55,283 nt of DNA from a virus (taxonomy: Duplodnaviria > Caudoviricetes). The notes under the pieces were generated by a model. That model was not told the DNA's origin. It was given only the letters and a program-made list of their open reading frames with translations, and did not search any database. Both the position numbers and the translations under genes were made by a program. Below are positions 37,631-55,283 of the stretch, piece by piece; position 1 is the first letter of the stretch, and every line of letters starts with the position of its first letter. Location: positions 1 through 55,283 of the IMG/VR virus record IMGVR_UViG_3300027736_000059. One strand, 5' to 3'.

Positions 37631-38076
37631 TGACTGAACGCACTGCTGGTAAGTGGATACTGCCACAGCCAGAAGAAGGTAAGGAATATGTTTCAGTACC
37701 TCAGCTATCCAGAACAATACCGTTTGGCTACAAGAAAGACGAAGAGAATGAAGGGTGGCTCCTTCCTATTCCGTTAGAACTAGATGCTCTTGAGGAAGCC
37801 AAGAAATATCTTAAGCAATATTCATACAGGCAAGTTGCTGCTTGGATTACAACAGCAACAGGAAGACAACTTTCTCATGCAGGACTCAAGAACAGAATAG
37901 AACATGAACAGTCGAACAGGAGAAAATCTTCAACTTACCGCCTCCTTGCCCAGCGGTACGAAGAAGCGCTTAGGAAGGCCGAAGAATACGAAAAAAGAAT
38001 CGGAACCGAAGGAAGCTTCTTTGAGTCCGATCATTTTAGAGACATCTCTTCCACCTTCAGAACCAGCGATATCTAA
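37630..38076 (+). CDS. HTH DNA-binding protein (recombinase-like PFGY motif)
   Basis: IPFGY...SYRxVAxW...GRxxSHxGL. Confidence 0.6.
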   Translation: MTERTAGKWILPQPEEGKEYVSVPQLSRTIPFGYKKDEENEGWLLPIPLELDALEEAKKYLKQYSYRQVAAWITTATGRQLSHAGLKNRIEHEQSNRRKSSTYRLLAQRYEEALRKAEEYEKRIGTEGSFFESDHFRDISSTFRTSDI

Positions 38077-39493
38077 TATCGTTGTTCCCACTTCCACACA
38101 GAATGTAATCTTCAAGCCCAATGATGGGCCTCAGACATTCTTCCTATCTGCTTCTGAAAGAGAAGTGCTATATGGTGGAGCCGCTGGCGGTGGCAAGAGT
38201 TATGCCATGTTGGCAGACCCTCTTCGCTACTTAGCCCATCCACAATTCTCTGGATTGCTGCTACGCCACACAACAGAAGAGCTTCGTGAGCTTATCTGGA
38301 AAAGCCAAGAAATATATCCCAAGATTTATCCCAACATCAAGTGGAGTGAGAGGAAGATGCAGTGGGTAGCACCGTCTGGGGCTAGGCTTTGGATGTCCTA
38401 CCTAGACAGAGACGAGGATGTGCTGAGATATCAGGGATTAGCCTTTAGCTGGATAGGCTTTGATGAGCTTACGCAGTGGCATACCCCCTTTGCTTGGAAT
38501 TATATGCGCTCACGGCTGCGTACTCCAGCAGCAGACCTCCCAATTTACATGAGAGCCACCACAAATCCGGGTGGCCCCGGTCATGCTTGGGTTAAAAAGA
38601 TGTTTATTGACCCAGCACCAGCAGGAAAACCCTTCTGGGCTACAGATATTGAGACTGCAACTGTATTAAGCTACCCAAAAGGACACACTAAAGAGGGTCA
38701 ACCCCTGTTTAAACGCCGTTTTGTACCTGCTATGCTGTCTGATAACCCATATTTGGCTGAGACAGGCGACTACGAGACGATGTTGTTGTCCCTTCCTGAG
38801 CATCAACGCAAGCAATTGCTAGAAGGAAACTGGGATATTGCAGAGGGAGCAGCCTTTTCTGAGTTTAATAGGGCCATACATGTGGTAGAACCCTTTGACA
38901 TCCCAAGTAATTGGGTAAAGTTTAGGTCATGCGACTATGGATATGGTAGTCATAGTGCTGTTGTTTGGTTTGCTGTTACTCCAAGTGAGCAAATTATCAT
39001 CTATCGTGAGTTATATGTATCAAAGGTGTTGGCAAAAGACTTGGCTCACATGGTATTGAAGGCAGAACAGAACGATGGCACTATAAGATACGGAGTATTG
39101 GATAGCAGTTGCTGGCATAAGCGTGGAGATACTGGCCCTTCCCTAGCAGAACAGATGATTATGGAGGGATGCCGCTGGCGACCTTCGGATAGAAGTGCTG
39201 GTAGTAGGGTTGCAGGTAAGAATGAGATGCATAGAAGGTTGCAGGTTGACCCATTTACAGAAATGCCAAGAATGGTTATAACTAGTAACTGCGTAAATAC
39301 AATAGCTCAGCTTCCTATTATTCCTTTGGATAAAAAGAATCCTGAGGATATAGATACAAAGACGGAAGATCACTTATATGATGCAATTCGCTATGGCATT
39401 ATGAGCCGTCCTAGAAGTAGTTTGTTTGATTATAATCCAGCAAACAGTAAACAGTATGGGATGAAAGTAGCTGACCCAGTTTTTGGTTATTGA
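37904..39493 (+). CDS. terL: Terminase large subunit
   Basis: YGGAAGGGKS Walker A, FDELTQ Walker B, TTNPGG, nuclease DYG and DHLYDAIRY; start uncertain. Confidence 0.93.
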   Translation: MNSRTGENLQLTASLPSGTKKRLGRPKNTKKESEPKEASLSPIILETSLPPSEPAISNIVVPTSTQNVIFKPNDGPQTFFLSASEREVLYGGAAGGGKSYAMLADPLRYLAHPQFSGLLLRHTTEELRELIWKSQEIYPKIYPNIKWSERKMQWVAPSGARLWMSYLDRDEDVLRYQGLAFSWIGFDELTQWHTPFAWNYMRSRLRTPAADLPIYMRATTNPGGPGHAWVKKMFIDPAPAGKPFWATDIETATVLSYPKGHTKEGQPLFKRRFVPAMLSDNPYLAETGDYETMLLSLPEHQRKQLLEGNWDIAEGAAFSEFNRAIHVVEPFDIPSNWVKFRSCDYGYGSHSAVVWFAVTPSEQIIIYRELYVSKVLAKDLAHMVLKAEQNDGTIRYGVLDSSCWHKRGDTGPSLAEQMIMEGCRWRPSDRSAGSRVAGKNEMHRRLQVDPFTEMPRMVITSNCVNTIAQLPIIPLDKKNPEDIDTKTEDHLYDAIRYGIMSRPRSSLFDYNPANSKQYGMKVADPVFGY

Positions 39494-39507
39494 TATTAAG
39501 GAATAAT

Positions 39508-41607
39508 ATGGTAGAGAAGCAAAAAGCGCTGGGAGATAAAACCTTAGCCCTAGATGATATTAAATCTGTAGAAGATTCAGAAGCTACTGGTGGCGGTATT
39601 ATTGCTTATGTGCAAGAACGCTTTACTAGGTCTGAGACAAGTAGAAAGCAAGACGAGACAAGATGGCTCCGCGCCTATCGCAATTATCGTGGTATCTATG
39701 GAACTGATGTACAGTTTACAGAACATGAGAAGTCTCGTGTATTCATTAAAGTAACCAAGACAAAAACTCTAGCTGCCTACGGTCAAATCATTGAGGTATT
39801 ATTTTCCAACAACAAGTTTCCTCTTAGCGTAGACCCTACTGTTCTTCCTGATGGTGTGGTTGAGAGTGTACACTTTGACCCTAACGACAAGACCCCACCT
39901 GTTCCAAAGAAGAAAACAGAGATTCCTTTTGGTGATAGTGGTAGTGAGGCTATTCCTAGTGGGTTCTCATTAGATGATCTAGAAGAAATGCTAGGCTCTA
40001 TGAAGGATGAACTCAAAGACATCCCCAATCTAAAAGAAGGGCCGGGGGTTACTCCTTCATCCGTCACCTTTAGTCCTGCTATGGTGGCAGCTAAGAAGAT
40101 GGAGAAGAAAATCCATGACCAGTTAGATGAGACAGGAGCTTCTAAGCATCTACGTTCTACTGCTTTTGAAATGGCTCTGTTTGGAACGGGCGTTATGAAA
40201 GGCCCATTTGCTGTCAACAAAGAATATGCTAGCTGGGATGGGGATGGTAAATATAAACCAACAATTAAAACTGTACCAGAAGCATCACATGTTTCTATCT
40301 GGAACTTCTATTGGGATGCAGACGCTAACAACACAGAAGATTGCCAGTATGTTATTGAGCGGCACAAGATGTCGCGTACTCAGCTTAGAGCGCTAAAGAA
40401 ACGTCCGCATTTTAGAGCCAATGTAATTGACCAAATCATTGAAGAAGGTGAAGGCTACGTTAAGAGATATTGGGAAGACGATCTAAAAGATTATGCTCCC
40501 ACCTTTGGCGTTGAGCGCTTTGAAGTTTTGGAATATTGGGGTAATGTAGATATTGATTTGTTGGAGGAGAATGACGTAGTTATTCCTGAAGACATGAAAG
40601 AAGCTGGTGAACTACAAGCTAATATCTGGTATTGCAACGGTAAGATTCTTCGTCTTGTTTTGAATCCTTTCAAGCCAGCGCGTATTCCTTACTACGCTGT
40701 TCCTTATGAACTCAATCCCTACTCCTTAGCTGGCGTTGGTATTGGTGAGAACATGGATGATACGCAGACACTGATGAATGGCTTCATGCGTATGGCTGTT
40801 GATAATGCTGTGCTGTCTGGTAATCTCATCTTTGAAATTGATGAAACTAATCTTGTCCCCGGTCAAGACCTATCTGTGTACCCCGGCAAAGTGTTCCGCA
40901 GACAAGGGGGCGCTCCGGGTCAGTCGCTGTTTGGAACTAAGTTTCCAAATGTTTCCAATGAGAACCTACAACTATTTGATAAAGCTAGACAACTAGCAGA
41001 TGAGTCCACAGGACTTCCATCATTCTCTCATGGTCAGACAGGCGTATCTGGAGTAGGAAGAACTGCCAGCGGTATCAGCATGTTGATGAATGCTGCTAGC
41101 GGCAATATCAAAACAGTCATTAAGAATGTGGATGATTATTTGCTTGCTCCTTTGGGTGAGGCTTTCTTTAACTTCAATATGCAGTTTGACTATGATCCTG
41201 AGATTAAGGGAGACTTGGAAGTAACGGCTAAGGGAACAGAAAGCTTGATGGCTAATGAAGTTAGAAGCCAGCGATTGATGCAGTTCTTGCAGATTGCTAG
41301 CCAGCCTTCACTTGCTCCGTTTGCTAAATTCCCTTACATCATCCGTGAAATTGCAAAGAGCATGGACTTAGACCCCGACAGAGTTACCAACAACATGGAC
41401 GAGGCTATGAAGCAAGCGTTCTTAGCTCAGCAGAATGCACCTCCTGCACCTCCTGCTGCACCAGCCGGTGCTGCTCCACAGGGCGCTCCCCCGCAAGGCG
41501 TAGCTGGCCCTCCTAGCGTGGCAGACATGAGTGGTGGTGGCGGTGGCAACATTGGTGTTGGCGCTGCTCCTGCGCCCGGAGAACAAGGATTTAGCGGCAA
41601 TGTCTGA
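39508..41607 (+). CDS. Portal protein
   Basis: Follows TerL; FGTGVMKGPF, GxGIxENM, RTASGISML, Pro/Gly-rich tail; start reassigned (AAGGA SD). Confidence 0.88.
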   Translation: MVEKQKALGDKTLALDDIKSVEDSEATGGGIIAYVQERFTRSETSRKQDETRWLRAYRNYRGIYGTDVQFTEHEKSRVFIKVTKTKTLAAYGQIIEVLFSNNKFPLSVDPTVLPDGVVESVHFDPNDKTPPVPKKKTEIPFGDSGSEAIPSGFSLDDLEEMLGSMKDELKDIPNLKEGPGVTPSSVTFSPAMVAAKKMEKKIHDQLDETGASKHLRSTAFEMALFGTGVMKGPFAVNKEYASWDGDGKYKPTIKTVPEASHVSIWNFYWDADANNTEDCQYVIERHKMSRTQLRALKKRPHFRANVIDQIIEEGEGYVKRYWEDDLKDYAPTFGVERFEVLEYWGNVDIDLLEENDVVIPEDMKEAGELQANIWYCNGKILRLVLNPFKPARIPYYAVPYELNPYSLAGVGIGENMDDTQTLMNGFMRMAVDNAVLSGNLIFEIDETNLVPGQDLSVYPGKVFRRQGGAPGQSLFGTKFPNVSNENLQLFDKARQLADESTGLPSFSHGQTGVSGVGRTASGISMLMNAASGNIKTVIKNVDDYLLAPLGEAFFNFNMQFDYDPEIKGDLEVTAKGTESLMANEVRSQRLMQFLQIASQPSLAPFAKFPYIIREIAKSMDLDPDRVTNNMDEAMKQAFLAQQNAPPAPPAAPAGAAPQGAPPQGVAGPPSVADMSGGGGGNIGVGAAPAPGEQGFSGNV

Positions 41608-41815
41608 TAAGTCTTATCTACCCAAGTTAAAAGGACTGGTTGCAAACAACAATCAATGGGAGGGCTTTTGTGAAATGCTTCAATTTAATATTGAACAGCA
41701 ACAACGAAAGCTTGAACAAGCAACTGAACTCCGAGAAATACATCAAGCTCAGGGAGCTATAACTATGCTGCGTCAAATGAAATATCTCAAGGAAGAAATA
41801 AATGCCCACAAATAA
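41600..41815 (+). CDS. Small coiled-coil head-associated protein
   Basis: LEQA....IxxAQGAIxxLRxxKxLKEE; located after the portal gene. Confidence 0.65.
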   Translation: MSDKSYLPKLKGLVANNNQWEGFCEMLQFNIEQQQRKLEQATELREIHQAQGAITMLRQMKYLKEEINAHK

Positions 41816-44036
41816 TCTGTTAGCTACTGGTGGAATGAAACAACAAGGTGGAACAGTAGACCCTGTTAGCGGTAACGCTGTTCCTGTAGGTTCTCTACAA
41901 AATGAAGTTAGAGACGATGTAGATTCAAAGCTTAGTAATGGTGAGTTTGTTTTCCCTGCTGATGTTACACGCTACATTGGTCTAGATAAGCTTATGCAAA
42001 TCCGTGAAGCAGCCAAGCAAGGACTACAGAAAATGGATAGCATGGGACAGATGGGAAATTCTGAGGAAGTTGTTGGAGACGGAAATAGCGAAGATCAATT
42101 CTCTTCTCACATTGATGACATTATTGCCACTGTTGATGGGAAAGAAGGAGTAAAGAAATTTGCTGGTGGTGGTGGAGTAAATACAACTTCATATAGTGGA
42201 GCGCCTTTGCAGGGATTTTCAATGGAGCTATACGAAGACCCCAAAACAAAAGTAACAAGATACATTCCTTTCCTTAATGGTAAAGCCTTGCTTCCTGTTC
42301 CCTCTGGGTATATAAAGAAAGATGTTTCTGCTCCAGCAACAGACACTACAACGACTACCACTACTCCAGCAACAGCCGTAGATACCACAGGGAAAACAGG
42401 CGGTGGTGGTGGAACAAGTAGGGATGGTACTGATACTACTGGTGGAATAGGTGGCACAGGTGGAGGAACTACTCCTGAAGGATTTGGTGGAATACAAAGC
42501 GGAACAAGTTCAACTATTGGAAAATTTACAGGTCTTCTTCCCGGCCCTCTTGGACTCTTAGCCGCCGCCGCTGTTAAAGTTTATACTAAAATAAATAATG
42601 AACAAGCAGCAGCGGCAAATGCTAAAGCAGTAGACGCTTCTGCTTTATCCTCCATGGGATTTAGTGCCGCGTCTGTAAAAGCTGCACAAGAAGCAGCAGC
42701 TAAGGCAACTCTTGAGGGTAAGTCTGCTAAAGATATTGCAGTTGCAGCAGCTAATGCAGCCTCTGTAGGTGTAGCTACTGGAGCACCAAAAGATTCGTTA
42801 GATGCTTTGATGGGAATTACCAATGCATTTAATACAATGACGAATACACAAGCTCAAGAAAATGCTACAGAGACTTCTGTAAACACTAGTCTTGCTGCTG
42901 CCGGTCTTGAGGGGCAAGTGCCAGCAGGTATGTGGGGCGTAGTTGTTAGCGGAATTCAAGATGGGCTTACTGCACAACAAGCTGTAGATAAGGCTATTCA
43001 AGTTGCTGATACAGCAGTTAATAAAGACGCAGCATTAGCGAATATAGCAGAAGCAACTAAAGAAGCCGTAACTGCTCAAGATACAGCAGATAACAAAGAC
43101 GCAGCAGCAGCTAATATGGCAGCAGCAATTCAAGCAGCCATCAACGCTCAAAATGCTCAGGATACAGCACCTTTATCCTTATCTCAAGTATCAGTAACTT
43201 CGGATGCTTCCATAAGTGATGGTGGTACTGATGGAATTGGTGGCGGCGTTGGCTCTGGTGGTTATAGTGGCCCAGCTTCTGGCGCAACATCCGCAGGTTC
43301 TGCCCCCGGCCCAAGCGCAGGTTCGGCTGCTGGCCCTGCTAGTGGTGGAGAAGGTGGCGATGGCGGTGGCTCTGCTGCTGGTAGCGCAGCCCGTGGAGGT
43401 ATAGGCTTTGGTGGAACTGGTAGCGGTGTAGGTGGTGATGGTGGTGACGGCGGTGGGGGCGGCAATACAGGCCGTGGTGGCGGCGAAGGCGGCGGTGGTG
43501 CTGGCGCTGGTGCTGGGGGCGGTGGTGATGGAGGTGGTGCTGGGGGCGGTGGTGATGGAGGTGGAGGAAACGGCCCAACATGCTTTGTTAAAGGCTCCTT
43601 AGTAACACTTGCTGATGGAAGAAGAATAGCTATTGAAGATGTTGCTGTCGGAGACTTTGTTCTTGGACAGGGCGGCTCTAATGAAGTTGTAGCCTATGAT
43701 CGTCCGCAGTTGATTATCCCAGATGTCCGTAATGGCACTCTTTATGGCATTAACGGCTCTAAGAAATTCATTACTTCAGAACATCCCGTGATGACTAAGG
43801 ATGGCTGGAAAGCTATTGACCAAGAGAACGCTAAGAAGTTTGAGCCTCATCTGAGTAAGATTTTAGTTGGTAGTCTGATAGTTGGTGATCTCCTTGTCAA
43901 AGAAGGTGGAGAACTTATGCTAGTTACTAGCATAGATAAATACACTGATCAGCCTCAACAGCAACTATATAACTTGATGCTCAACGGTGATCATACATAT
44001 TATGTAAATGAAATGCTTGTTCACAATAAAGACTAA
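41802..44036 (+). CDS. Virion-associated protein: N-terminal LSxGEFV domain, Ala/Gly-rich linker, C-terminal Hint domain
   Basis: RDDVDSKLSNGEFVFPADV; Hint block A CFVKGSLV, block B TSEHP, LYNL...YYVNxxLVHN followed by KD-stop. Confidence 0.8.
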   Translation: MPTNNLLATGGMKQQGGTVDPVSGNAVPVGSLQNEVRDDVDSKLSNGEFVFPADVTRYIGLDKLMQIREAAKQGLQKMDSMGQMGNSEEVVGDGNSEDQFSSHIDDIIATVDGKEGVKKFAGGGGVNTTSYSGAPLQGFSMELYEDPKTKVTRYIPFLNGKALLPVPSGYIKKDVSAPATDTTTTTTTPATAVDTTGKTGGGGGTSRDGTDTTGGIGGTGGGTTPEGFGGIQSGTSSTIGKFTGLLPGPLGLLAAAAVKVYTKINNEQAAAANAKAVDASALSSMGFSAASVKAAQEAAAKATLEGKSAKDIAVAAANAASVGVATGAPKDSLDALMGITNAFNTMTNTQAQENATETSVNTSLAAAGLEGQVPAGMWGVVVSGIQDGLTAQQAVDKAIQVADTAVNKDAALANIAEATKEAVTAQDTADNKDAAAANMAAAIQAAINAQNAQDTAPLSLSQVSVTSDASISDGGTDGIGGGVGSGGYSGPASGATSAGSAPGPSAGSAAGPASGGEGGDGGGSAAGSAARGGIGFGGTGSGVGGDGGDGGGGGNTGRGGGEGGGGAGAGAGGGGDGGGAGGGGDGGGGNGPTCFVKGSLVTLADGRRIAIEDVAVGDFVLGQGGSNEVVAYDRPQLIIPDVRNGTLYGINGSKKFITSEHPVMTKDGWKAIDQENAKKFEPHLSKILVGSLIVGDLLVKEGGELMLVTSIDKYTDQPQQQLYNLMLNGDHTYYVNEMLVHNKD

Positions 44037-44170
44037 AGTAAACTGATATATAATACAAATATCTAAACCAGTGGTGAGCTGGAAGATACTTAATAACAAC
44101 CCACCATTATTGGCTAACCTGACTCCCCGATTTATCGGCTACAGACCAGCCCCAACTTAAGGATATATTT

Positions 44171-45028
44171 ATGACAGAAGCAGTGATGGAAAAACAAGAA
44201 CAGAAGACAGCATTTGCTAGCCGCAATGCTAATGACGAAAGAATTAAAAAAGAAGAAGACGAACTAAAAGATTTAATTAATCTAAACACAGAAGGAAAAC
44301 CGGCCTCAGTTAACCCAGAAGACGATAGCAACTTAAATGCAGAGGAAAAAACATTTAAGAAACGCTATGGCGATTTAAGAAGTCATTCCCAAAAGCAGCA
44401 AATTCAACTTCAGAAAGAGATTGATGAGCTTCGGGAACAGCTACAGAAGAGTACCAGCAATCAGATTAAACTCCCTACCAGCGATGAAGACCTAGCTGCT
44501 TGGGCTAATGAGTATCCTGATGTTGCCCGTATTGTAGAAACAATTGCAATCAAAAAAGCCAAAGAACAATCAGCAGAACTAGACCAGCGCTTTAAAGCTC
44601 TGGACGATAGGGAGCAGGAGACTGCCAGAGAAAAGGCAGAGGCTGAGTTGCTTCGTATGCATCCCGACTTTGAGAATATCAAAGACAGTGATGAGTTTCA
44701 CAATTGGGTGGAAGAGCAGCCTAAGTGGGTACAGAACGCTTTGTATGAGAATGACACAGACGCTAAAGCAGCATCCCGTGCCATTGATTTGTACAAGGCA
44801 GATAAGGGAATTGGTAAACCAAAGAAGGCAGATAATCGAAGTGCAGCCGAAAGTGTCTCCACTAGAAGCAGCCGTTCTGCTCCTTCTGGTCAGGACATGG
44901 ACGGGGTTATTTATGAATCCCAAGTTAATTCCATGACATCCCATCAGTATGAAGCTAACCAAGAAGCCATCTCAAAGGCTATTAAATCTGGTAAGTTTGT
45001 ATACGATCTAAGTGGCAACGCACGTTAA
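44171..45028 (+). CDS. Capsid scaffolding protein
   Basis: FKKRYGDLR, HPDF, FxxWVxxQP, AIDLYK; acidic coiled coil directly upstream of the capsid gene. Confidence 0.8.
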   Translation: MTEAVMEKQEQKTAFASRNANDERIKKEEDELKDLINLNTEGKPASVNPEDDSNLNAEEKTFKKRYGDLRSHSQKQQIQLQKEIDELREQLQKSTSNQIKLPTSDEDLAAWANEYPDVARIVETIAIKKAKEQSAELDQRFKALDDREQETAREKAEAELLRMHPDFENIKDSDEFHNWVEEQPKWVQNALYENDTDAKAASRAIDLYKADKGIGKPKKADNRSAAESVSTRSSRSAPSGQDMDGVIYESQVNSMTSHQYEANQEAISKAIKSGKFVYDLSGNAR

Positions 45029-45291: not shown

Positions 45292-46362
45292 ATGGCATTT
45301 CCCAAGGCAACGGGTTACGGCAATTTACCTAATGGTAATTTTAGTCCAGTAATCTATTCCAAGCAAGTACAACTTGCATTCCGTAAGGCTTCCACTGTTG
45401 AAGCCGTGACCAACAACGACTATTTTGGCGAGATTGCCAACATGGGCGATTCGGTTAAGATCATCAAAGAGCCTGAAGTTAGCGTTCAGTCGTATGCTCG
45501 TGGTACACAAATCACTGCACAAGACCTGAATGATGAGGACTTCACACTTGTTGTCGATCAGGCTAACTACTATGCCTTCAAGATTGATGACATTGAAGCC
45601 GCTCACTCCCATGTAAATTTCATGCAAATGGCTTCTGATCGCGCTGCTTATCGCATCCGTGACCAGTATGACCAAGACGTTTTGGGTTACATGTCTGGCT
45701 ATCAGCAATCCGCTAAGCATGCTCAAGCAGGTACAGCCCGTACTACCTACCCCGGTACTAAGGCATTGACTGAAGCTGGCTCCAACGAATTGCTGTCCAC
45801 CATGCAATTGAAGAAGAGTGACTTTGGTAACATTACTACCGCCTCCGCTGGTGACCATTCCATTCCTTTGGCTGCTCGTCTGCCGGGTGCTACCGCACTG
45901 CCCACGGCTACGGCTTCTCCTCTGATGGTGATTTCCCGTATGAGCCGTTTGCTAGACCAACAGTTCGTTGACACTAGCGGACGCTGGTTGGTGATTGACC
46001 CCATCTTCATGGAACTGTTGAAAGACGAAGACAGCCGCTTGCTTAACAGCTTGTTCGGTGGTTCTGGTCTGCAAAACGGTTTGGTAGTGGACAACCTGCA
46101 CGGCTTCAAAGTGTATGTGTCTAACAACCTGCCTAAGGTTGGTACAGGCGCTGGCACTACAGGTACGGCTAACCAGAACACCAACTTCGGTGTTATCGTT
46201 GCCGGTCACCAGTCTGCTATTGCTACCGCTCAGCAGATCACCAAGACAGAAACCTATCGTGACCCAGATAGCTTTGCTGACATCGTGCGTGGTATGCATC
46301 TCTATGGTCGCAAAATCTTGCGTCCTGAGGGCATCGTCACTGCTAAGTATAACGCTGCTTAA
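45292..46362 (+). CDS. Major capsid protein
   Basis: GNFSPVIYSK, TNxDYFGEI, GDSVKI, FxIDDIE, DSFADIVRGMHLYGRKILRPE; strong AGGAG SD and biased codon usage. Confidence 0.92.
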   Translation: MAFPKATGYGNLPNGNFSPVIYSKQVQLAFRKASTVEAVTNNDYFGEIANMGDSVKIIKEPEVSVQSYARGTQITAQDLNDEDFTLVVDQANYYAFKIDDIEAAHSHVNFMQMASDRAAYRIRDQYDQDVLGYMSGYQQSAKHAQAGTARTTYPGTKALTEAGSNELLSTMQLKKSDFGNITTASAGDHSIPLAARLPGATALPTATASPLMVISRMSRLLDQQFVDTSGRWLVIDPIFMELLKDEDSRLLNSLFGGSGLQNGLVVDNLHGFKVYVSNNLPKVGTGAGTTGTANQNTNFGVIVAGHQSAIATAQQITKTETYRDPDSFADIVRGMHLYGRKILRPEGIVTAKYNAA

Positions 46363-51405: not shown

Positions 51406-54400
51406 ATGACAGGTTACACTAGAGCAGACTCAGTTAACAATATTGCTGATGGTAATATTATTAATGCGTCAGATTTGGATGGGGAATTTGATGCAGTGCA
51501 AGCTGCTTTTAATAGTTCCACTGGACATGTCCATGATGGCACTGCCGCTAATGGCGCTCCTATTACAAAGATTGGGCCTACACAAGATGTAGTGGCTTCA
51601 GCTACAGCTCTCACACCAAAGACAACAGCCACTGTTGATGTTGGTAGTAGCGCTCTGAAGTTTAAGGATTTCTTCTACAGCGGTGCTGGTAGTGTTACAG
51701 GAACAATTACTGCTGGTGGATTTGCTGGCCCTATCAACGGCACAGTAGGTGCTACGACTCCTGCGGCTGGCGTTTTTACTTCGCTAACAGCTACCACCGC
51801 GATCACACTCAACACCACGACGAACAACCAATCGTACACAACCACTGGTGCTGGCACTATTACTATCTCGTCTGGCACTGCTGGCACTATCAACAACATG
51901 AGCATTGGGGCTACCACTGCTGGTACTGGCAAGTTCACCGCTATTACAAATAGCGCGTTGACATCAGGCCGAATTATATATGCGACCACTGGTGGCCTTG
52001 AGACTGACTCTGCCAACCTTTTGTACAGCGGTACTGACCTGACTGTGTATGGCATCACCGTGGGCCGTGGTGCGGGTGCTGTGGCTACCAATACTGCTGT
52101 TGGTAATGGCGCTTTGTTTTCAAATACATCAGGCGCTTTAAACAGTGCATTTGGCGCTAATGCTTTGCAATCGAATACTACGGGAAACTACAACACTGCC
52201 GCTGGAGCAAGTGATAATTCTTTTGGTAGCGCGTTGTACTCTAATACTTCGGGCGGCAACAACATTGCTTTTGGTAATGGCGCATTAGCAAGAAACACCA
52301 CGGGCAACTATAACGTCGCTGTCGGTATGCAGGCGCTTTCAGCCAACACCACAGCATCTAGCAACACTGCTGTTGGTTACCAAGCCGCTTACACAAACAT
52401 CACAGGTATTCAATACACTGCCGTTGGCGCAAATGCCGCCCGTCTTGCCACGGGAAGCCAAGTTACGGCTGTTGGTGCAAGCGCTTTAACCGCTTTAACT
52501 ACTGGCGTTGAAAACGTGTCCGTAGGCGTGTACTCTGGTGGCGCAATGACAACTGGTGGCTATAACACTGCTGTGGGTGATGACTCTCTGCGCTTTACTA
52601 CTACTGGCTCCAATAATGTAGGCATAGGCTACGCTGCCCTTAACGCCAACACCACAGCCTCATACAACACTGCCGTAGGGCACACGGCAGGGTATAGCAC
52701 CACTACTGGTCAATTTAATACCGCTGTTGGTCAAGAAGCGTTTTATTACAACACTACGGGTTCAAACAATACGGCTATTGGTCGTGATGCCCTTGCCTCT
52801 AGCACCACAGCATCCAACAACACTGCTGTTGGTTATCAGGCGGGGTATAGCAATACCACGGGGACAATTAACCTATATGTCGGTAATGCCGCAGGGTATA
52901 AAACCACCACAGGCGCAGGAAACTCATTTGTTGGCAGTTACGCTACTGGGTACAACAATACCACAGGCGGTCAAAACACAGCACTTGGTCAAGAGGCACT
53001 TGCGCAAAACACCACAGCATCCAACAACACTGCTGTAGGTTTTCAGGCTGGGTACGCAAATACTACAGGCGCTTATTCTGTGTCTGTGGGGGGTCGGGCA
53101 CTGTACACAAATACCACTGGTCAAGAAAACACTGCTGTTGGATATGGCTCTTTGGAATCAAACACCACGGGTCAATACAATGTGGCGCAAGGTTTGTACG
53201 CTTTGCGCTTCAACACCACAGCATCAAACAATACTGCTGTAGGTTATCAGGCTTCGTACTCTCAAACAACAAATGGTTCAAACACAAGTGTAGGATACCA
53301 AGCTCTATACGCAAATACCAACGTAAATAACGTAGCAGTTGGGTACAGAGCAGGATACTCAAACACAACTGGCGATATTGTGGTTGTTGGCAAAGAAGCA
53401 GGTCTTACAAATACGACTGGAAGCTATTTGGTTGCCGTTGGTCGCCAAGCGTTTACTGCAAACACAACAGGCGACCATAACGTGGGCGTGGGTCTTGGCG
53501 CTGGTGGTGCAAATACCACGGGGGCAAACAACACGGCCCTTGGTTCGCAAGCCCTCACATCCAACACCACAGCATCAAACAATACTGCTGTAGGTTATCA
53601 GGCTGGGTATAGCAATACGACGGGTGCAGCAAATGTAGCAATGGGCGCACAGGCGCTGAACACAAACTCAACTGGGCGAGATAATTCAGCATTTGGAGAA
53701 ACGGCACTTGGGCTAAACACCACTGGTTCGTTTAATGCCGCATTTGGCGGGAGAAATACAGGCGGTACTTTATCGGCTCTTGGCTCCAACACCACAGGCT
53801 CATACAACACAGCAACAGGCATAGCCGCATTAGGTTCAAACACCACAGCATCTAACAACACTGCTGTGGGTTATCAGGCTGGGTATAGTAATACTACTGG
53901 TGTATATAACGTATTTGTAGGTCAAGGTGCGGGTCAAAATAGCACTGGCGGTAATAACTGTTTTATTGGGGCAAATGCTGGATCAGGTGTTACAACCGGA
54001 ACCGGAAACACGTTTATTGGTTCTGGGGCAATAAGTGTATTCCCGTCTGGGTTTTACATTACAACCGGCTCCAAAAATTCCATCCTTGGCAACTACAACG
54101 GCAACCAAGGTGGCCTAGACATTCGCACAGCAAGCAACTACATCGTGCTGTCTGATGGGGATGGGAATCCACGGGGTATTTTTGATGATAGCGGTAACTT
54201 TTTGGTGGGAGATACAACTGCTTCTGTGGGACGCGTGCAAATTTCAAACCTTGTTAATGCAGGAATAGAACAAGCGTTAAGAACTAGACTTGGTGCTGGA
54301 TGTAATAACACAACCTCATATCACCTTGTTGCGTCAACAGGCGGATCAGATAAGATATATATCTATGGAAATGGAAACGTAGTTAATGTAAATAACAGCT

Positions 54401-54729
54401 ATGGCGCTCTTTCAGATATAAAGTTAAAAGAAAACATTGTTGATTCAACGCCAAAGTTGGCGCAACTGAACCAAGTTCGTGTTGTCAACTACAACATAGT
54501 TGGTGATAAGCAGAAACAGATTGGTGTTATTGCTCAAGAACTTGAACAAGTTTTTCCGGGGATGGTTGATGAGTCACCCGACCTTGACAAAGAAGGCAAC
54601 GACCTTGGCACGACAACCAAGTCAGTAAAGTACAGTGTGTTTGTTCCCATGCTAATTAAAGCCATCCAAGAACAACAAGCACTTATCACTTCCCTAACCG
54701 CCCGTATCACGGCACTTGAATCAACCTAA
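51406..54729 (+). CDS. Tail fibre with beta-roll repeats and a C-terminal S74 intramolecular chaperone
   Basis: N-terminal anchor GHxHDG, many NTTxxxNTAVGxxA repeats, SDIKLKENI, GVIAQE, PMLIKAIQEQQ. Confidence 0.9.
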   Translation: MTGYTRADSVNNIADGNIINASDLDGEFDAVQAAFNSSTGHVHDGTAANGAPITKIGPTQDVVASATALTPKTTATVDVGSSALKFKDFFYSGAGSVTGTITAGGFAGPINGTVGATTPAAGVFTSLTATTAITLNTTTNNQSYTTTGAGTITISSGTAGTINNMSIGATTAGTGKFTAITNSALTSGRIIYATTGGLETDSANLLYSGTDLTVYGITVGRGAGAVATNTAVGNGALFSNTSGALNSAFGANALQSNTTGNYNTAAGASDNSFGSALYSNTSGGNNIAFGNGALARNTTGNYNVAVGMQALSANTTASSNTAVGYQAAYTNITGIQYTAVGANAARLATGSQVTAVGASALTALTTGVENVSVGVYSGGAMTTGGYNTAVGDDSLRFTTTGSNNVGIGYAALNANTTASYNTAVGHTAGYSTTTGQFNTAVGQEAFYYNTTGSNNTAIGRDALASSTTASNNTAVGYQAGYSNTTGTINLYVGNAAGYKTTTGAGNSFVGSYATGYNNTTGGQNTALGQEALAQNTTASNNTAVGFQAGYANTTGAYSVSVGGRALYTNTTGQENTAVGYGSLESNTTGQYNVAQGLYALRFNTTASNNTAVGYQASYSQTTNGSNTSVGYQALYANTNVNNVAVGYRAGYSNTTGDIVVVGKEAGLTNTTGSYLVAVGRQAFTANTTGDHNVGVGLGAGGANTTGANNTALGSQALTSNTTASNNTAVGYQAGYSNTTGAANVAMGAQALNTNSTGRDNSAFGETALGLNTTGSFNAAFGGRNTGGTLSALGSNTTGSYNTATGIAALGSNTTASNNTAVGYQAGYSNTTGVYNVFVGQGAGQNSTGGNNCFIGANAGSGVTTGTGNTFIGSGAISVFPSGFYITTGSKNSILGNYNGNQGGLDIRTASNYIVLSDGDGNPRGIFDDSGNFLVGDTTASVGRVQISNLVNAGIEQALRTRLGAGCNNTTSYHLVASTGGSDKIYIYGNGNVVNVNNSYGALSDIKLKENIVDSTPKLAQLNQVRVVNYNIVGDKQKQIGVIAQELEQVFPGMVDESPDLDKEGNDLGTTTKSVKYSVFVPMLIKAIQEQQALITSLTARITALEST

Positions 54730-55137: not shown

Positions 55138-55283
55138 GATATATAGTAGTATTCTTAATACTAGTAACTCTAGTATATGGAGCTACGCCTAAGCCTACTT
55201 GTAGTGCTTCTGACTTTGCTAATGTTGCATACTCTACGAATAACCCCAAAGAAAGAAAAGAGATAACAGAAAAATGGTTGGAT
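55134..55283 (+). CDS. 5' part of the junction-spanning secreted/membrane protein
   Basis: MRYIVVFLILVTLVYGA signal-like N-terminus; continues at the window start. Confidence 0.75.
   Translation, partial: MRYIVVFLILVTLVYGATPKPTCSASDFANVAYSTNNPKERKEITEKWLD
55152..55283. repeat. Terminal overlap (circular assembly), copy 2
   Basis: Matches 1-131 apart from one extra A. Confidence 0.95.

Follow-up and report, generated by a model that had tools for sequence, protein, structure and literature searches.

A predicted type-A bacterial intein-like Hint domain as an optional C-terminal module of a portal-adjacent protein in an HMO-2011-type podophage

Type-A bacterial intein-like (BIL) domains reside, according to a review, in hypervariable regions of non-conserved proteins (Amitai 2003, Dassa 2004). 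As described there, they form an N-terminal thioester, can cyclise their terminal Asn, end in His-Asn without a +1 nucleophile and yield mostly cleavage products. BIL2 of Tetrahymena thermophila BUBL1 (6y75/6tmm) sits between two ubiquitin-like domains and reportedly transfers the upstream one to lysines (PMC8616854). According to PMC9038755, HMO-2011-type phages form one of the dominant groups of marine viruses. No description of a role of BIL domains in phages was found in the literature searched, and the words 'intein' and 'Hint' are absent from the main text of the main comparative paper on HMO-2011-type phages. Here, the Hint domain is analyzed that ends a 744-residue protein, termed gpX, in IMG/VR virus record IMGVR_UViG_3300027736_000059 (Duplodnaviria; Caudoviricetes). 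The whole stretch analyzed, positions 1 to 55,283 of this record, is referred to as the window and represents the 55.3-kb genome of a marine podophage that belongs to the HMO-2011 type. By sequence criteria the last 151 residues of gpX correspond to a type-A BIL Hint domain and, judged from its family, it is moderately likely that they constitute an optional, recombining and self-removing cassette on a hypervariable protein encoded next to the portal.

A first-pass annotation, made from the letters of the window, had pointed to a Gly-rich stretch followed by GPT-C594-FVKG, TSEHP and LVHN-K-D-stop at the end of the gene, and in the translation each of these was identified at the place given for it (Table 1). 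The domain starts with GNGPT-C594-FVKG and ends with LVH741-N742-K-D-stop, and C594 is the sole Cys of the gpX protein. The first Cys and the terminal His-Asn, which had been described as intact, provide together with T-x-x-H the residues for the first step (Cys1, T-x-x-H) and for the third step of the intein reaction. In Pfam, five Hint families matched this region, the best being PF05203 (E 1.5e-05, 25.5 bits versus a cut-off of 32.1); because all five matches stayed under their gathering scores, Pfam was not decisive on its own. The 64%-identical relative P0009 scored above the curated cut-offs of PF05203, PF14623, PF07591 and PF01079.

A family profile was built from 14 domain sequences and run against the PDB sequences. 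Its best matches were Tetrahymena BUBL1 BIL2 (6y75/6tmm, E 1.6e-10) and a Clostridium thermocellum BIL domain (2lwy, E 6.8e-10), followed by the gp41-1, DnaB and PI-SceI inteins and, more weakly, Hedgehog. The AlphaFold2 model obtained from the family alignment had a mean predicted local distance difference test score (pLDDT) of 92.0 and a predicted template modelling score of 0.85. When this model was compared with the PDB using Foldseek, BIL2 again ranked first (E 3.3e-09, template modelling score (TM) 0.76-0.78), 2lwy came next (TMt 0.79) and mini-inteins followed, with 48 matches at E<=0.001. The Foldseek probability was 1.00 for BIL2, 2lwy and the mini-inteins, which places the domain in the Hint (Hedgehog/intein) fold. 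Combining relatives, profile and structure model, it is concluded that the C-terminus of gpX is a genuine Hint domain, as the first-pass annotation had held. Its features at the sequence level are those used to define type-A BILs: the Hint fold, an N-terminal Cys with T-x-x-H, a C-terminal His-Asn, a position without +1 nucleophile and a location in the hypervariable region of a non-conserved protein. Since residue +1 is Lys (K743) and thus no nucleophile of the Cys/Ser/Thr kind, with only Asp and the stop codon after it, the expectation that the domain cannot splice canonically holds. Base composition did not mark the Hint as foreign, its GC content being 0.40 versus 0.44 for the window and its GC at third codon positions resembling that of the neighbouring genes.

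The closest phages encode gpX orthologs that lack the Hint, and this absence is the most telling result. At loci L017 and L019 the portal is 94.8/92.0% identical to that of the window, the scaffold 93.3/87.7% and the capsid 95.8/96.9%. Both orthologs are collinear with gpX for about 450 residues, with a middle region that is 37-49% identical, and then stop in a Gly/Ser/Thr-rich tail without a Hint; tblastn searches of the L017 and L019 loci identified no Hint elsewhere in them. For a broader view, loci carrying the conserved N-terminal core of gpX, here called the anchor, were surveyed in IMG/VR. At least 549 anchor-related stretches are present, of which the best 80 loci (L017-L096) were fetched, and a portal gene lies directly upstream of the anchor open reading frame (ORF) in 60 of these 80. 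Among the 65 ORFs that are complete at the 3' end, L081 alone encodes a Hint, which represents another subfamily (CPAPW...SHN-VK) and stands just before the basic tail. This conserved basic tail, AKGGL.AKR.KK...KRGIASK[KR], ends most members of the anchor family and is absent from the window protein. In L003, P0010 and P0012 a window-type Hint, 82% identical, is an insert immediately ahead of this tail, which is 24-25 residues long in these proteins. In some members of the anchor family, the anchor is preceded by an N-terminal extension whose length reaches about 1,200 residues (e.g. L090, 1,877 aa).

A protein search identified 28 other proteins that are 43-96% identical over residues 585-744. 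In an exhaustive profile search over 1.84 billion representatives, the subfamily comprised 805 clusters when matches were limited to E<=1e-30. Relaxing the threshold to E<=1e-10 raised this number to 4,645, and relaxing it to E<=1e-03 gave 22,292 clusters, a set that will include ordinary inteins. The 150 best matches and the earlier matches, together 170 proteins and by construction a score-biased sample, were examined. Among 276 near-full aligned copies the catalytic positions are almost invariant: Cys1 is conserved in 275 and the block-B His in all 276, with Thr/Ser three residues before this His in 273; at the end of the domain, 268 copies retain the penultimate His and 270 the terminal Asn. 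Residue +1 is Lys or Arg in 246 of 285 copies ending in HN (K 226, R 20), and Cys, Ser or Thr in 20 of them (C 9, S 9, T 2). The first-pass annotation had rightly recorded a Lys at +1 of the window copy and regarded it as a defect; the latter view did not hold, as this Lys is a near-invariant hallmark of the subfamily and not a degenerate feature of the window copy. Proteins contain one to seven Hint copies, tandem arrays of 2-7 copies occur, and 28 of the 170 proteins end within five residues after HN. The near-absence of a C-extein claimed for gpX was borne out, and a terminal position of the domain is common. Between the window and L003 the Hint is under purifying selection (dN 0.110, dS 0.80, ratio 0.14). 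Relatives of more than 60% identity came exclusively from viral or metagenomic data, and the subfamily is mostly viral. A scan that was limited by a sequence pattern and in which each prokaryotic species was represented by one genome yielded 13 loci at 35-46% identity, all in metagenome-assembled genomes of Alphaproteobacteria, Rickettsiales, candidate-phyla bacteria and Omnitrophota. Among the neighbours of the L004 Hint protein, Peptidase_M15 alone was recognisable.

The survey of homologs, which the first-pass annotation had proposed, shows both presence and absence of the Hint and swapping of C-terminal modules among orthologs. In the MW202701 ortholog (L001) residues 864-935 form a CFI-box-CTERM end (NF041770, 52.1 bits versus a cut-off of 40), and the same module directly follows a family Hint in P0027 (residues 692-762). 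In HMO-2011 gp49 (L002) the last ~137 residues form a domain, here called 'ICT', in place of the Hint. This 'ICT' domain also follows family Hints at a junction reading HNK-x-I-[IV]-C-T in 15/170 proteins; P0009, P0132 and L016:1360-1881 are examples of its occurrence. Both the CFI-box and the 'ICT' module start with Cys, and in L010, too, a module of these two kinds stands directly after a family Hint. AlphaFold gave a confident six-helix model for the 'ICT' domain of L016 (pLDDT 84), for which no match in the PDB was obtained at E<=0.001. Other sequences found after the last Hint are another Hint, the anchor motif (6), the DP[ILV]AQ[ST]F motif of DUF4815-type giant proteins (5/170), the CFI-box, short tails and unrelated sequence. 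A 20-residue linker before Cys1, GPGSTGTGSGVG[ST]GGVGPT, is common to nine Hint proteins whose N-terminal architectures are of at least three unrelated kinds, and therefore linker and Hint move as a unit. In HMO-2011-type phages the gene next to the portal is thus a hot spot of diversification, at which Hint, CFI-box, 'ICT' domain and basic tail are swapped.

Further arrangements of family Hints were observed outside this locus. DUF4815-type phage structural proteins of 2,100-2,900 aa (L007, L008, L012-L015) contain one or two family Hints, inserted just before the conserved DP[ILV]AQ[ST]F; L014 reads KSCLAYSF there. By their placement, these Hints would cut each giant protein in two. P0130 (810 aa) has a family Hint followed by the ubiquitin-like sequence MQIFVKTLTGK..., a BUBL-type arrangement as in Tetrahymena. 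Additional modules that begin with Cys after a Hint are CVIATHA... and CWVARKVYGEDNP...

From the residues that are conserved, the following course is proposed for gpX. The Hint would have arrived together with its Gly-rich linker as an optional recombining cassette. After folding, Cys594 would attack the carbonyl of Thr593 in an N-S acyl shift, aided by Thr658 and His661, and a thioester would be formed. With no Cys, Ser or Thr at +1 and a C-extein consisting only of Lys-Asp, neither a branched intermediate nor productive splicing would be expected, and the thioester would be resolved by water or a small thiol. The 16-kDa Hint would be released, with or without cyclisation of Asn742 to remove the Lys-Asp dipeptide, and a mature 593-residue protein ending in ...GGGGNGPT would be left. 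As this product would match what the Hint-less orthologs produce directly, the Hint can be viewed as a self-removing passenger or cap rather than as an essential working part, and the existence of near-identical phages without Hint favours simple self-removal of an optional module. Several points weigh against this reading. The chemistry of the window Hint, and of the phage subfamily as a whole, is only predicted. The strict conservation of His-Asn and of Lys/Arg at +1 is superfluous for plain N-terminal cleavage, and a conserved C-terminal junction that self-removal leaves unexplained hints that this junction may matter. Rather than being a mere passenger, a domain that at least five related phages share at 95% identity, with a dN/dS ratio of 0.14, could equally be useful to them. 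The frequency of the Hint allele is uncertain, since of the anchor loci, which number at least 549, the survey covered the best 80. Moreover, the reported use of the thioester in BIL2, the closest relative with a solved structure, is conjugation and not cleavage alone (PMC8616854).

Conjugation is indeed the alternative that the first-pass annotation had put forward for the window Hint, as a covalent attachment of the flexible tail to another virion or host molecule. The domain would then act as a single-turnover ligase that activates Thr593 as a thioester and passes the Gly-rich tail of the 593-residue protein to an amine or hydroxyl of the capsid, the portal or the host. The likeliest acceptor would be the epsilon-amine of a Lys, giving an isopeptide bond, and the +1 Lys/Arg could take part. 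The best match in both structure and sequence is Tetrahymena BIL2, for which the depositors report an isopeptide between a Lys epsilon-NH2 and a C-terminus and an ATP-free transfer of ubl4 to several substrates (PMC8616854). The family member P0130 with its ubiquitin-like sequence after the Hint is consistent with such a role, as is the retention of the catalytic residues and of the +1 Lys/Arg beyond what cleavage needs. In addition, a Lys-free tether of 127 residues and the lack of a second Cys leave no competing nucleophile nearby. Conjugation must, however, be dispensable for virion making, because phages with portal and capsid 92-97% identical to those of the window do without the Hint; nor does any adduct- or substrate-recognition region follow the Hint, only Lys-Asp, and no candidate acceptor was identified. 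Covalent attachment was not supported, the near-identical Hint-less phages favouring self-removal, and it is kept as a rival that we consider unlikely. In its most specific form, the protein would carry at its end an integral 'conjugase' that works once and without ATP, the Hint joining the tail by an isopeptide bond to a lysine in a protein of the head, the portal or the host in the manner of BIL2, with the +1 Lys/Arg as part of the chemistry; this form is judged quite unlikely.

Two further explanations were considered. If the Hint were a retained, non-processing domain, it would remain on the flexible tether as a terminal knob with a structural or binding role. Some Hint-fold domains have lost catalysis and serve as binding modules, and the family profile weakly matches ataxin-1 AXH chains (E 0.003-0.007); near-invariance of Cys1, T-x-x-H and His-Asn in the 276 copies would be unexpected were the chemistry irrelevant, and tandem arrays and optional presence fit a processing cassette better, which makes a knob very unlikely. 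The remaining explanation is that the gene once ran past the Hint into a basic tail or an effector and lost it by a recent truncation or by an assembly or frameshift error. The 24-25-residue basic tail that follows HNK in L003, P0010 and P0012, and the CFI-box, 'ICT' or anchor modules at this position in other family members, would agree with such a loss. A longer C-extein hidden by a frameshift, which had been named as an observation that would overturn the first-pass annotation, was looked for in the 134-nt spacer downstream, but all three frames are closed and contain neither a C-extein nor a remnant of the relatives' tails. Five near-identical metagenomic proteins on other contigs (P0004, P0005, P0006, P0007, P0028) likewise end in HNK[D/E]-stop, and P0008 is a stop-to-Gln read-through whose ten extra residues are translated spacer. 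With the downstream frames closed and five relatives ending alike, it is concluded that no C-extein is hidden. Terminal Hints are moreover shared by the 28 proteins mentioned above and the domain is under purifying selection, so truncation is already largely refuted and has to be regarded as highly improbable. A scan of the spacer (44037-44170) for promoters and terminators gave nothing above shuffles.

Table 1. Features of gpX and of the surrounding structural genes; positions refer to the window.
Feature	Position	Strand	Residues of gpX	Remarks
TerL	37904-39493			first gene of the structural block
Portal gene (context)	39490..41607	+		PF23899 SU10_portal, E 3.8e-24
Whole gene (gpX)	41802..44036	+	744 aa	ortholog of HMO-2011 gp49; ORF list, translation, tblastn, synteny
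Conserved N-terminal anchor core	41823..42071	+	about 8-90	39 invariant columns in 17 sequences
Most hydrophobic segment, GLLPGPLGLLAAAAVKVY	42522..42587	+	241-262	top Kyte-Doolittle 19-residue windows begin at residues 239-244
Ala-rich, repeat-containing, hypervariable middle region	42588..43199	+	263-466	28% Ala
Gly-rich linker, N-extein tail	43200..43580	+	467-593	ends ...GGGGNGPT; composition
Hint domain, BIL type-A kind (by sequence criteria)	43581..44027	+	C594 to N742	PDB-sequence profile, AlphaFold2, Foldseek, dN/dS
Cys594 codon TGC	43581-43583	+	594	predicted N-S acyl shift nucleophile; predicted cleavage between T593 and C594
Block B motif T658-S-E-H661-P (TSEHP)	43773..43787	+	658-662	translation
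Penultimate His741 and terminal Asn742 (block G)	44022..44027	+	741-742	N742 codon 44025-44027
Lys743 (+1), Asp744, TAA stop	44028..44036	+	743-744	TAA at 44034-44036
Non-coding spacer before scaffold-like gene	44037..44170	.		stops in all three frames
Scaffold-like gene (context)	44171-45028	+		scaffold role suggested by position and composition alone
Major capsid protein gene (context)	45292-46362	+		PF25209 Phage_capsid_4, E 2.7e-08

The structural block of the window has the order TerL, portal, gpX, scaffold-like and major capsid, with gpX placed between the portal and the scaffold-like genes. Megablast of gpX against 50,697 phage records gave no match, and tblastn of its product against the same records matched 14, including Puniceispirillum phage HMO-2011, eleven CRP roseophages and one uncultured podovirus; these matches cover only the N-terminal 9-23% of the product. 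In HMO-2011 and MW202701 the matching gene is found at the same post-portal place. Over 100 residues the window anchor is 57-63% identical to those of L003, HMO-2011 and MW202701, and its core reads GG..GGT.DPVSGN.VP.G...EVRDD...LS.GEFV.PADV.R..GL...M..R..AK.GL..M...GQMGN. With both the GEFV.PADV core and the post-portal position present, gpX belongs with the HMO-2011 gp49-like portal-adjacent proteins, a family that has no name. An anchor-type motif is also found at the C-terminus of proteins with other architectures (P0020, P0024, P0026, P0027).

PHROGs and NCBIfam returned nothing useful for the whole gpX protein, and no Pfam family matched the window anchor even at E<=10. In PHROGs the anchor itself was matched only weakly (E 1e-04 to 2e-03), by giant 'tape measure' profiles and there by their C-terminal parts. 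Gene position and this weak similarity to 'tape measure'-labelled proteins suggest that the gpX product is a virion or ejected protein, and we infer that the anchor serves as a virion-incorporation module. A complex prediction for the portal with anchor residues 1-100, run without controls, scored 0.00, which weighs neither for nor against an association of the two. An Atlas lead to the anchor as a crAss cargo domain, with a score of 0.82 that lies under the tool's own bar, was not confirmed.

Downstream of the anchor, a 72-bp tandem repeat with two copies and 82% matches is located at 43008-43151 in the Ala-rich middle region. P0004 and other relatives contain expanded AKDAAAKEAQD-type repeats at the corresponding place. 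The repeat and its expansion in relatives fit a repeat-driven hypervariability. The linker that follows, which begins at codon 467 (position 43200), consists of 51% Gly, 13% Ala and 11% Ser and is without Lys, and GGN-type tandem repeats were identified in it at 43425-43564.

Three other observations concern the genome. Positions 1-131 and 55153-55283 are identical at 128 of 131 positions, as would result from a terminal repeat or from the overlap of a circular assembly, and the window is therefore probably a complete genome of about 55.15 kb. A small ORF at 41531-41815 (+), which would encode ~70 residues from an internal Met, lies between the portal gene and gpX and overlaps the gpX start; small ORFs are present at the corresponding post-portal place in HMO-2011 and MW202701. 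A tail-fibre-like protein of 1107 residues (51406-54729, +) has a C-terminal Peptidase_S74 'chaperone of endosialidase' domain (residues 1003-1054, E 4e-11), a second self-removing C-terminal module in the same phage that is unrelated to the Hint of gpX.

If the Hint only removes itself, it would represent a clean natural example of an intein-like passenger that spreads by recombination in Gly-rich phage linkers. If it ligates, virions would have a new way to form covalent links, and the subfamily would be a source of compact self-cleaving or ligating tags. Were the 'conjugase' form of this idea true, phage particles would have a general means of covalent attachment in an unstudied and very large viral Hint subfamily (805 clusters at E<=1e-30).

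Among described systems, the Peptidase_S74 chaperone of phage tail fibres is a functional analogy only: it is a C-terminal module of a phage structural protein that removes itself after use, as predicted for the Hint, but differs in fold and chemistry, being a Ser-Lys dyad protease that needs trimerisation. In the Hedgehog autoprocessing (Hog) domain (1at0, Foldseek E 9.8e-06), a C-terminal Hint becomes linked to the upstream part by a thioester and is then set free, the course predicted for the window domain as well. Hog domains are not known to have the His-Asn end that the window domain keeps, and they continue into a sterol- or adduct-recognition region, whereas only two residues follow Asn742; for want of such a region the window Hint is not assigned to the Hog domains. 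The Pretoxin HINT family (PF07591) gave a weak match (E 0.027; 34.5 bits and over the cut-off for P0009) and resembles the window Hint in its variable host proteins with swapped C-terminal modules. Its members come with a toxin and an immunity gene, whereas no domain follows the window Hint and the next gene is scaffold-like. Since no toxin follows, the domain is not a pretoxin Hint either.

Class 1 mini-inteins (gp41-1, 6qaz/6riz) agree with the window Hint in their fold as well as in blocks A, B, F and G. The window Hint differs from them in having no Cys, Ser or Thr at +1 and in standing, as an optional module, at the extreme C-terminus of a hypervariable protein instead of at a conserved insertion site, and on these two grounds it is not an intein. 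Tetrahymena BIL2 shares the N- and C-terminal catalytic motifs at an identity of only 21-22%. Unlike BIL2 between its ubiquitin-like domains, the window Hint has a disordered tail with 51% Gly upstream and no domain downstream; the two may resemble each other in mechanism. The closest correspondence in sequence features is with the type-A BILs as represented by the C. thermocellum domain (2lwy), which have the same Hint fold, Cys1, T-x-x-H, His-Asn end and lack of a +1 nucleophile, about 150 residues without endonuclease, and a hypervariable, non-conserved host protein. Type-A BILs differ in that their hosts are bacterial surface or secreted proteins, whereas gpX is a phage protein; the window subfamily has almost always Lys/Arg at +1 and often forms tandem arrays, and the window copy stands at the very end of its protein with nothing to splice to. 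What is new in comparison with the literature searched is that the domain occurs in phages, that its +1 residue is basic, that terminal and tandem layouts are frequent and that modules are swapped at one phage locus.

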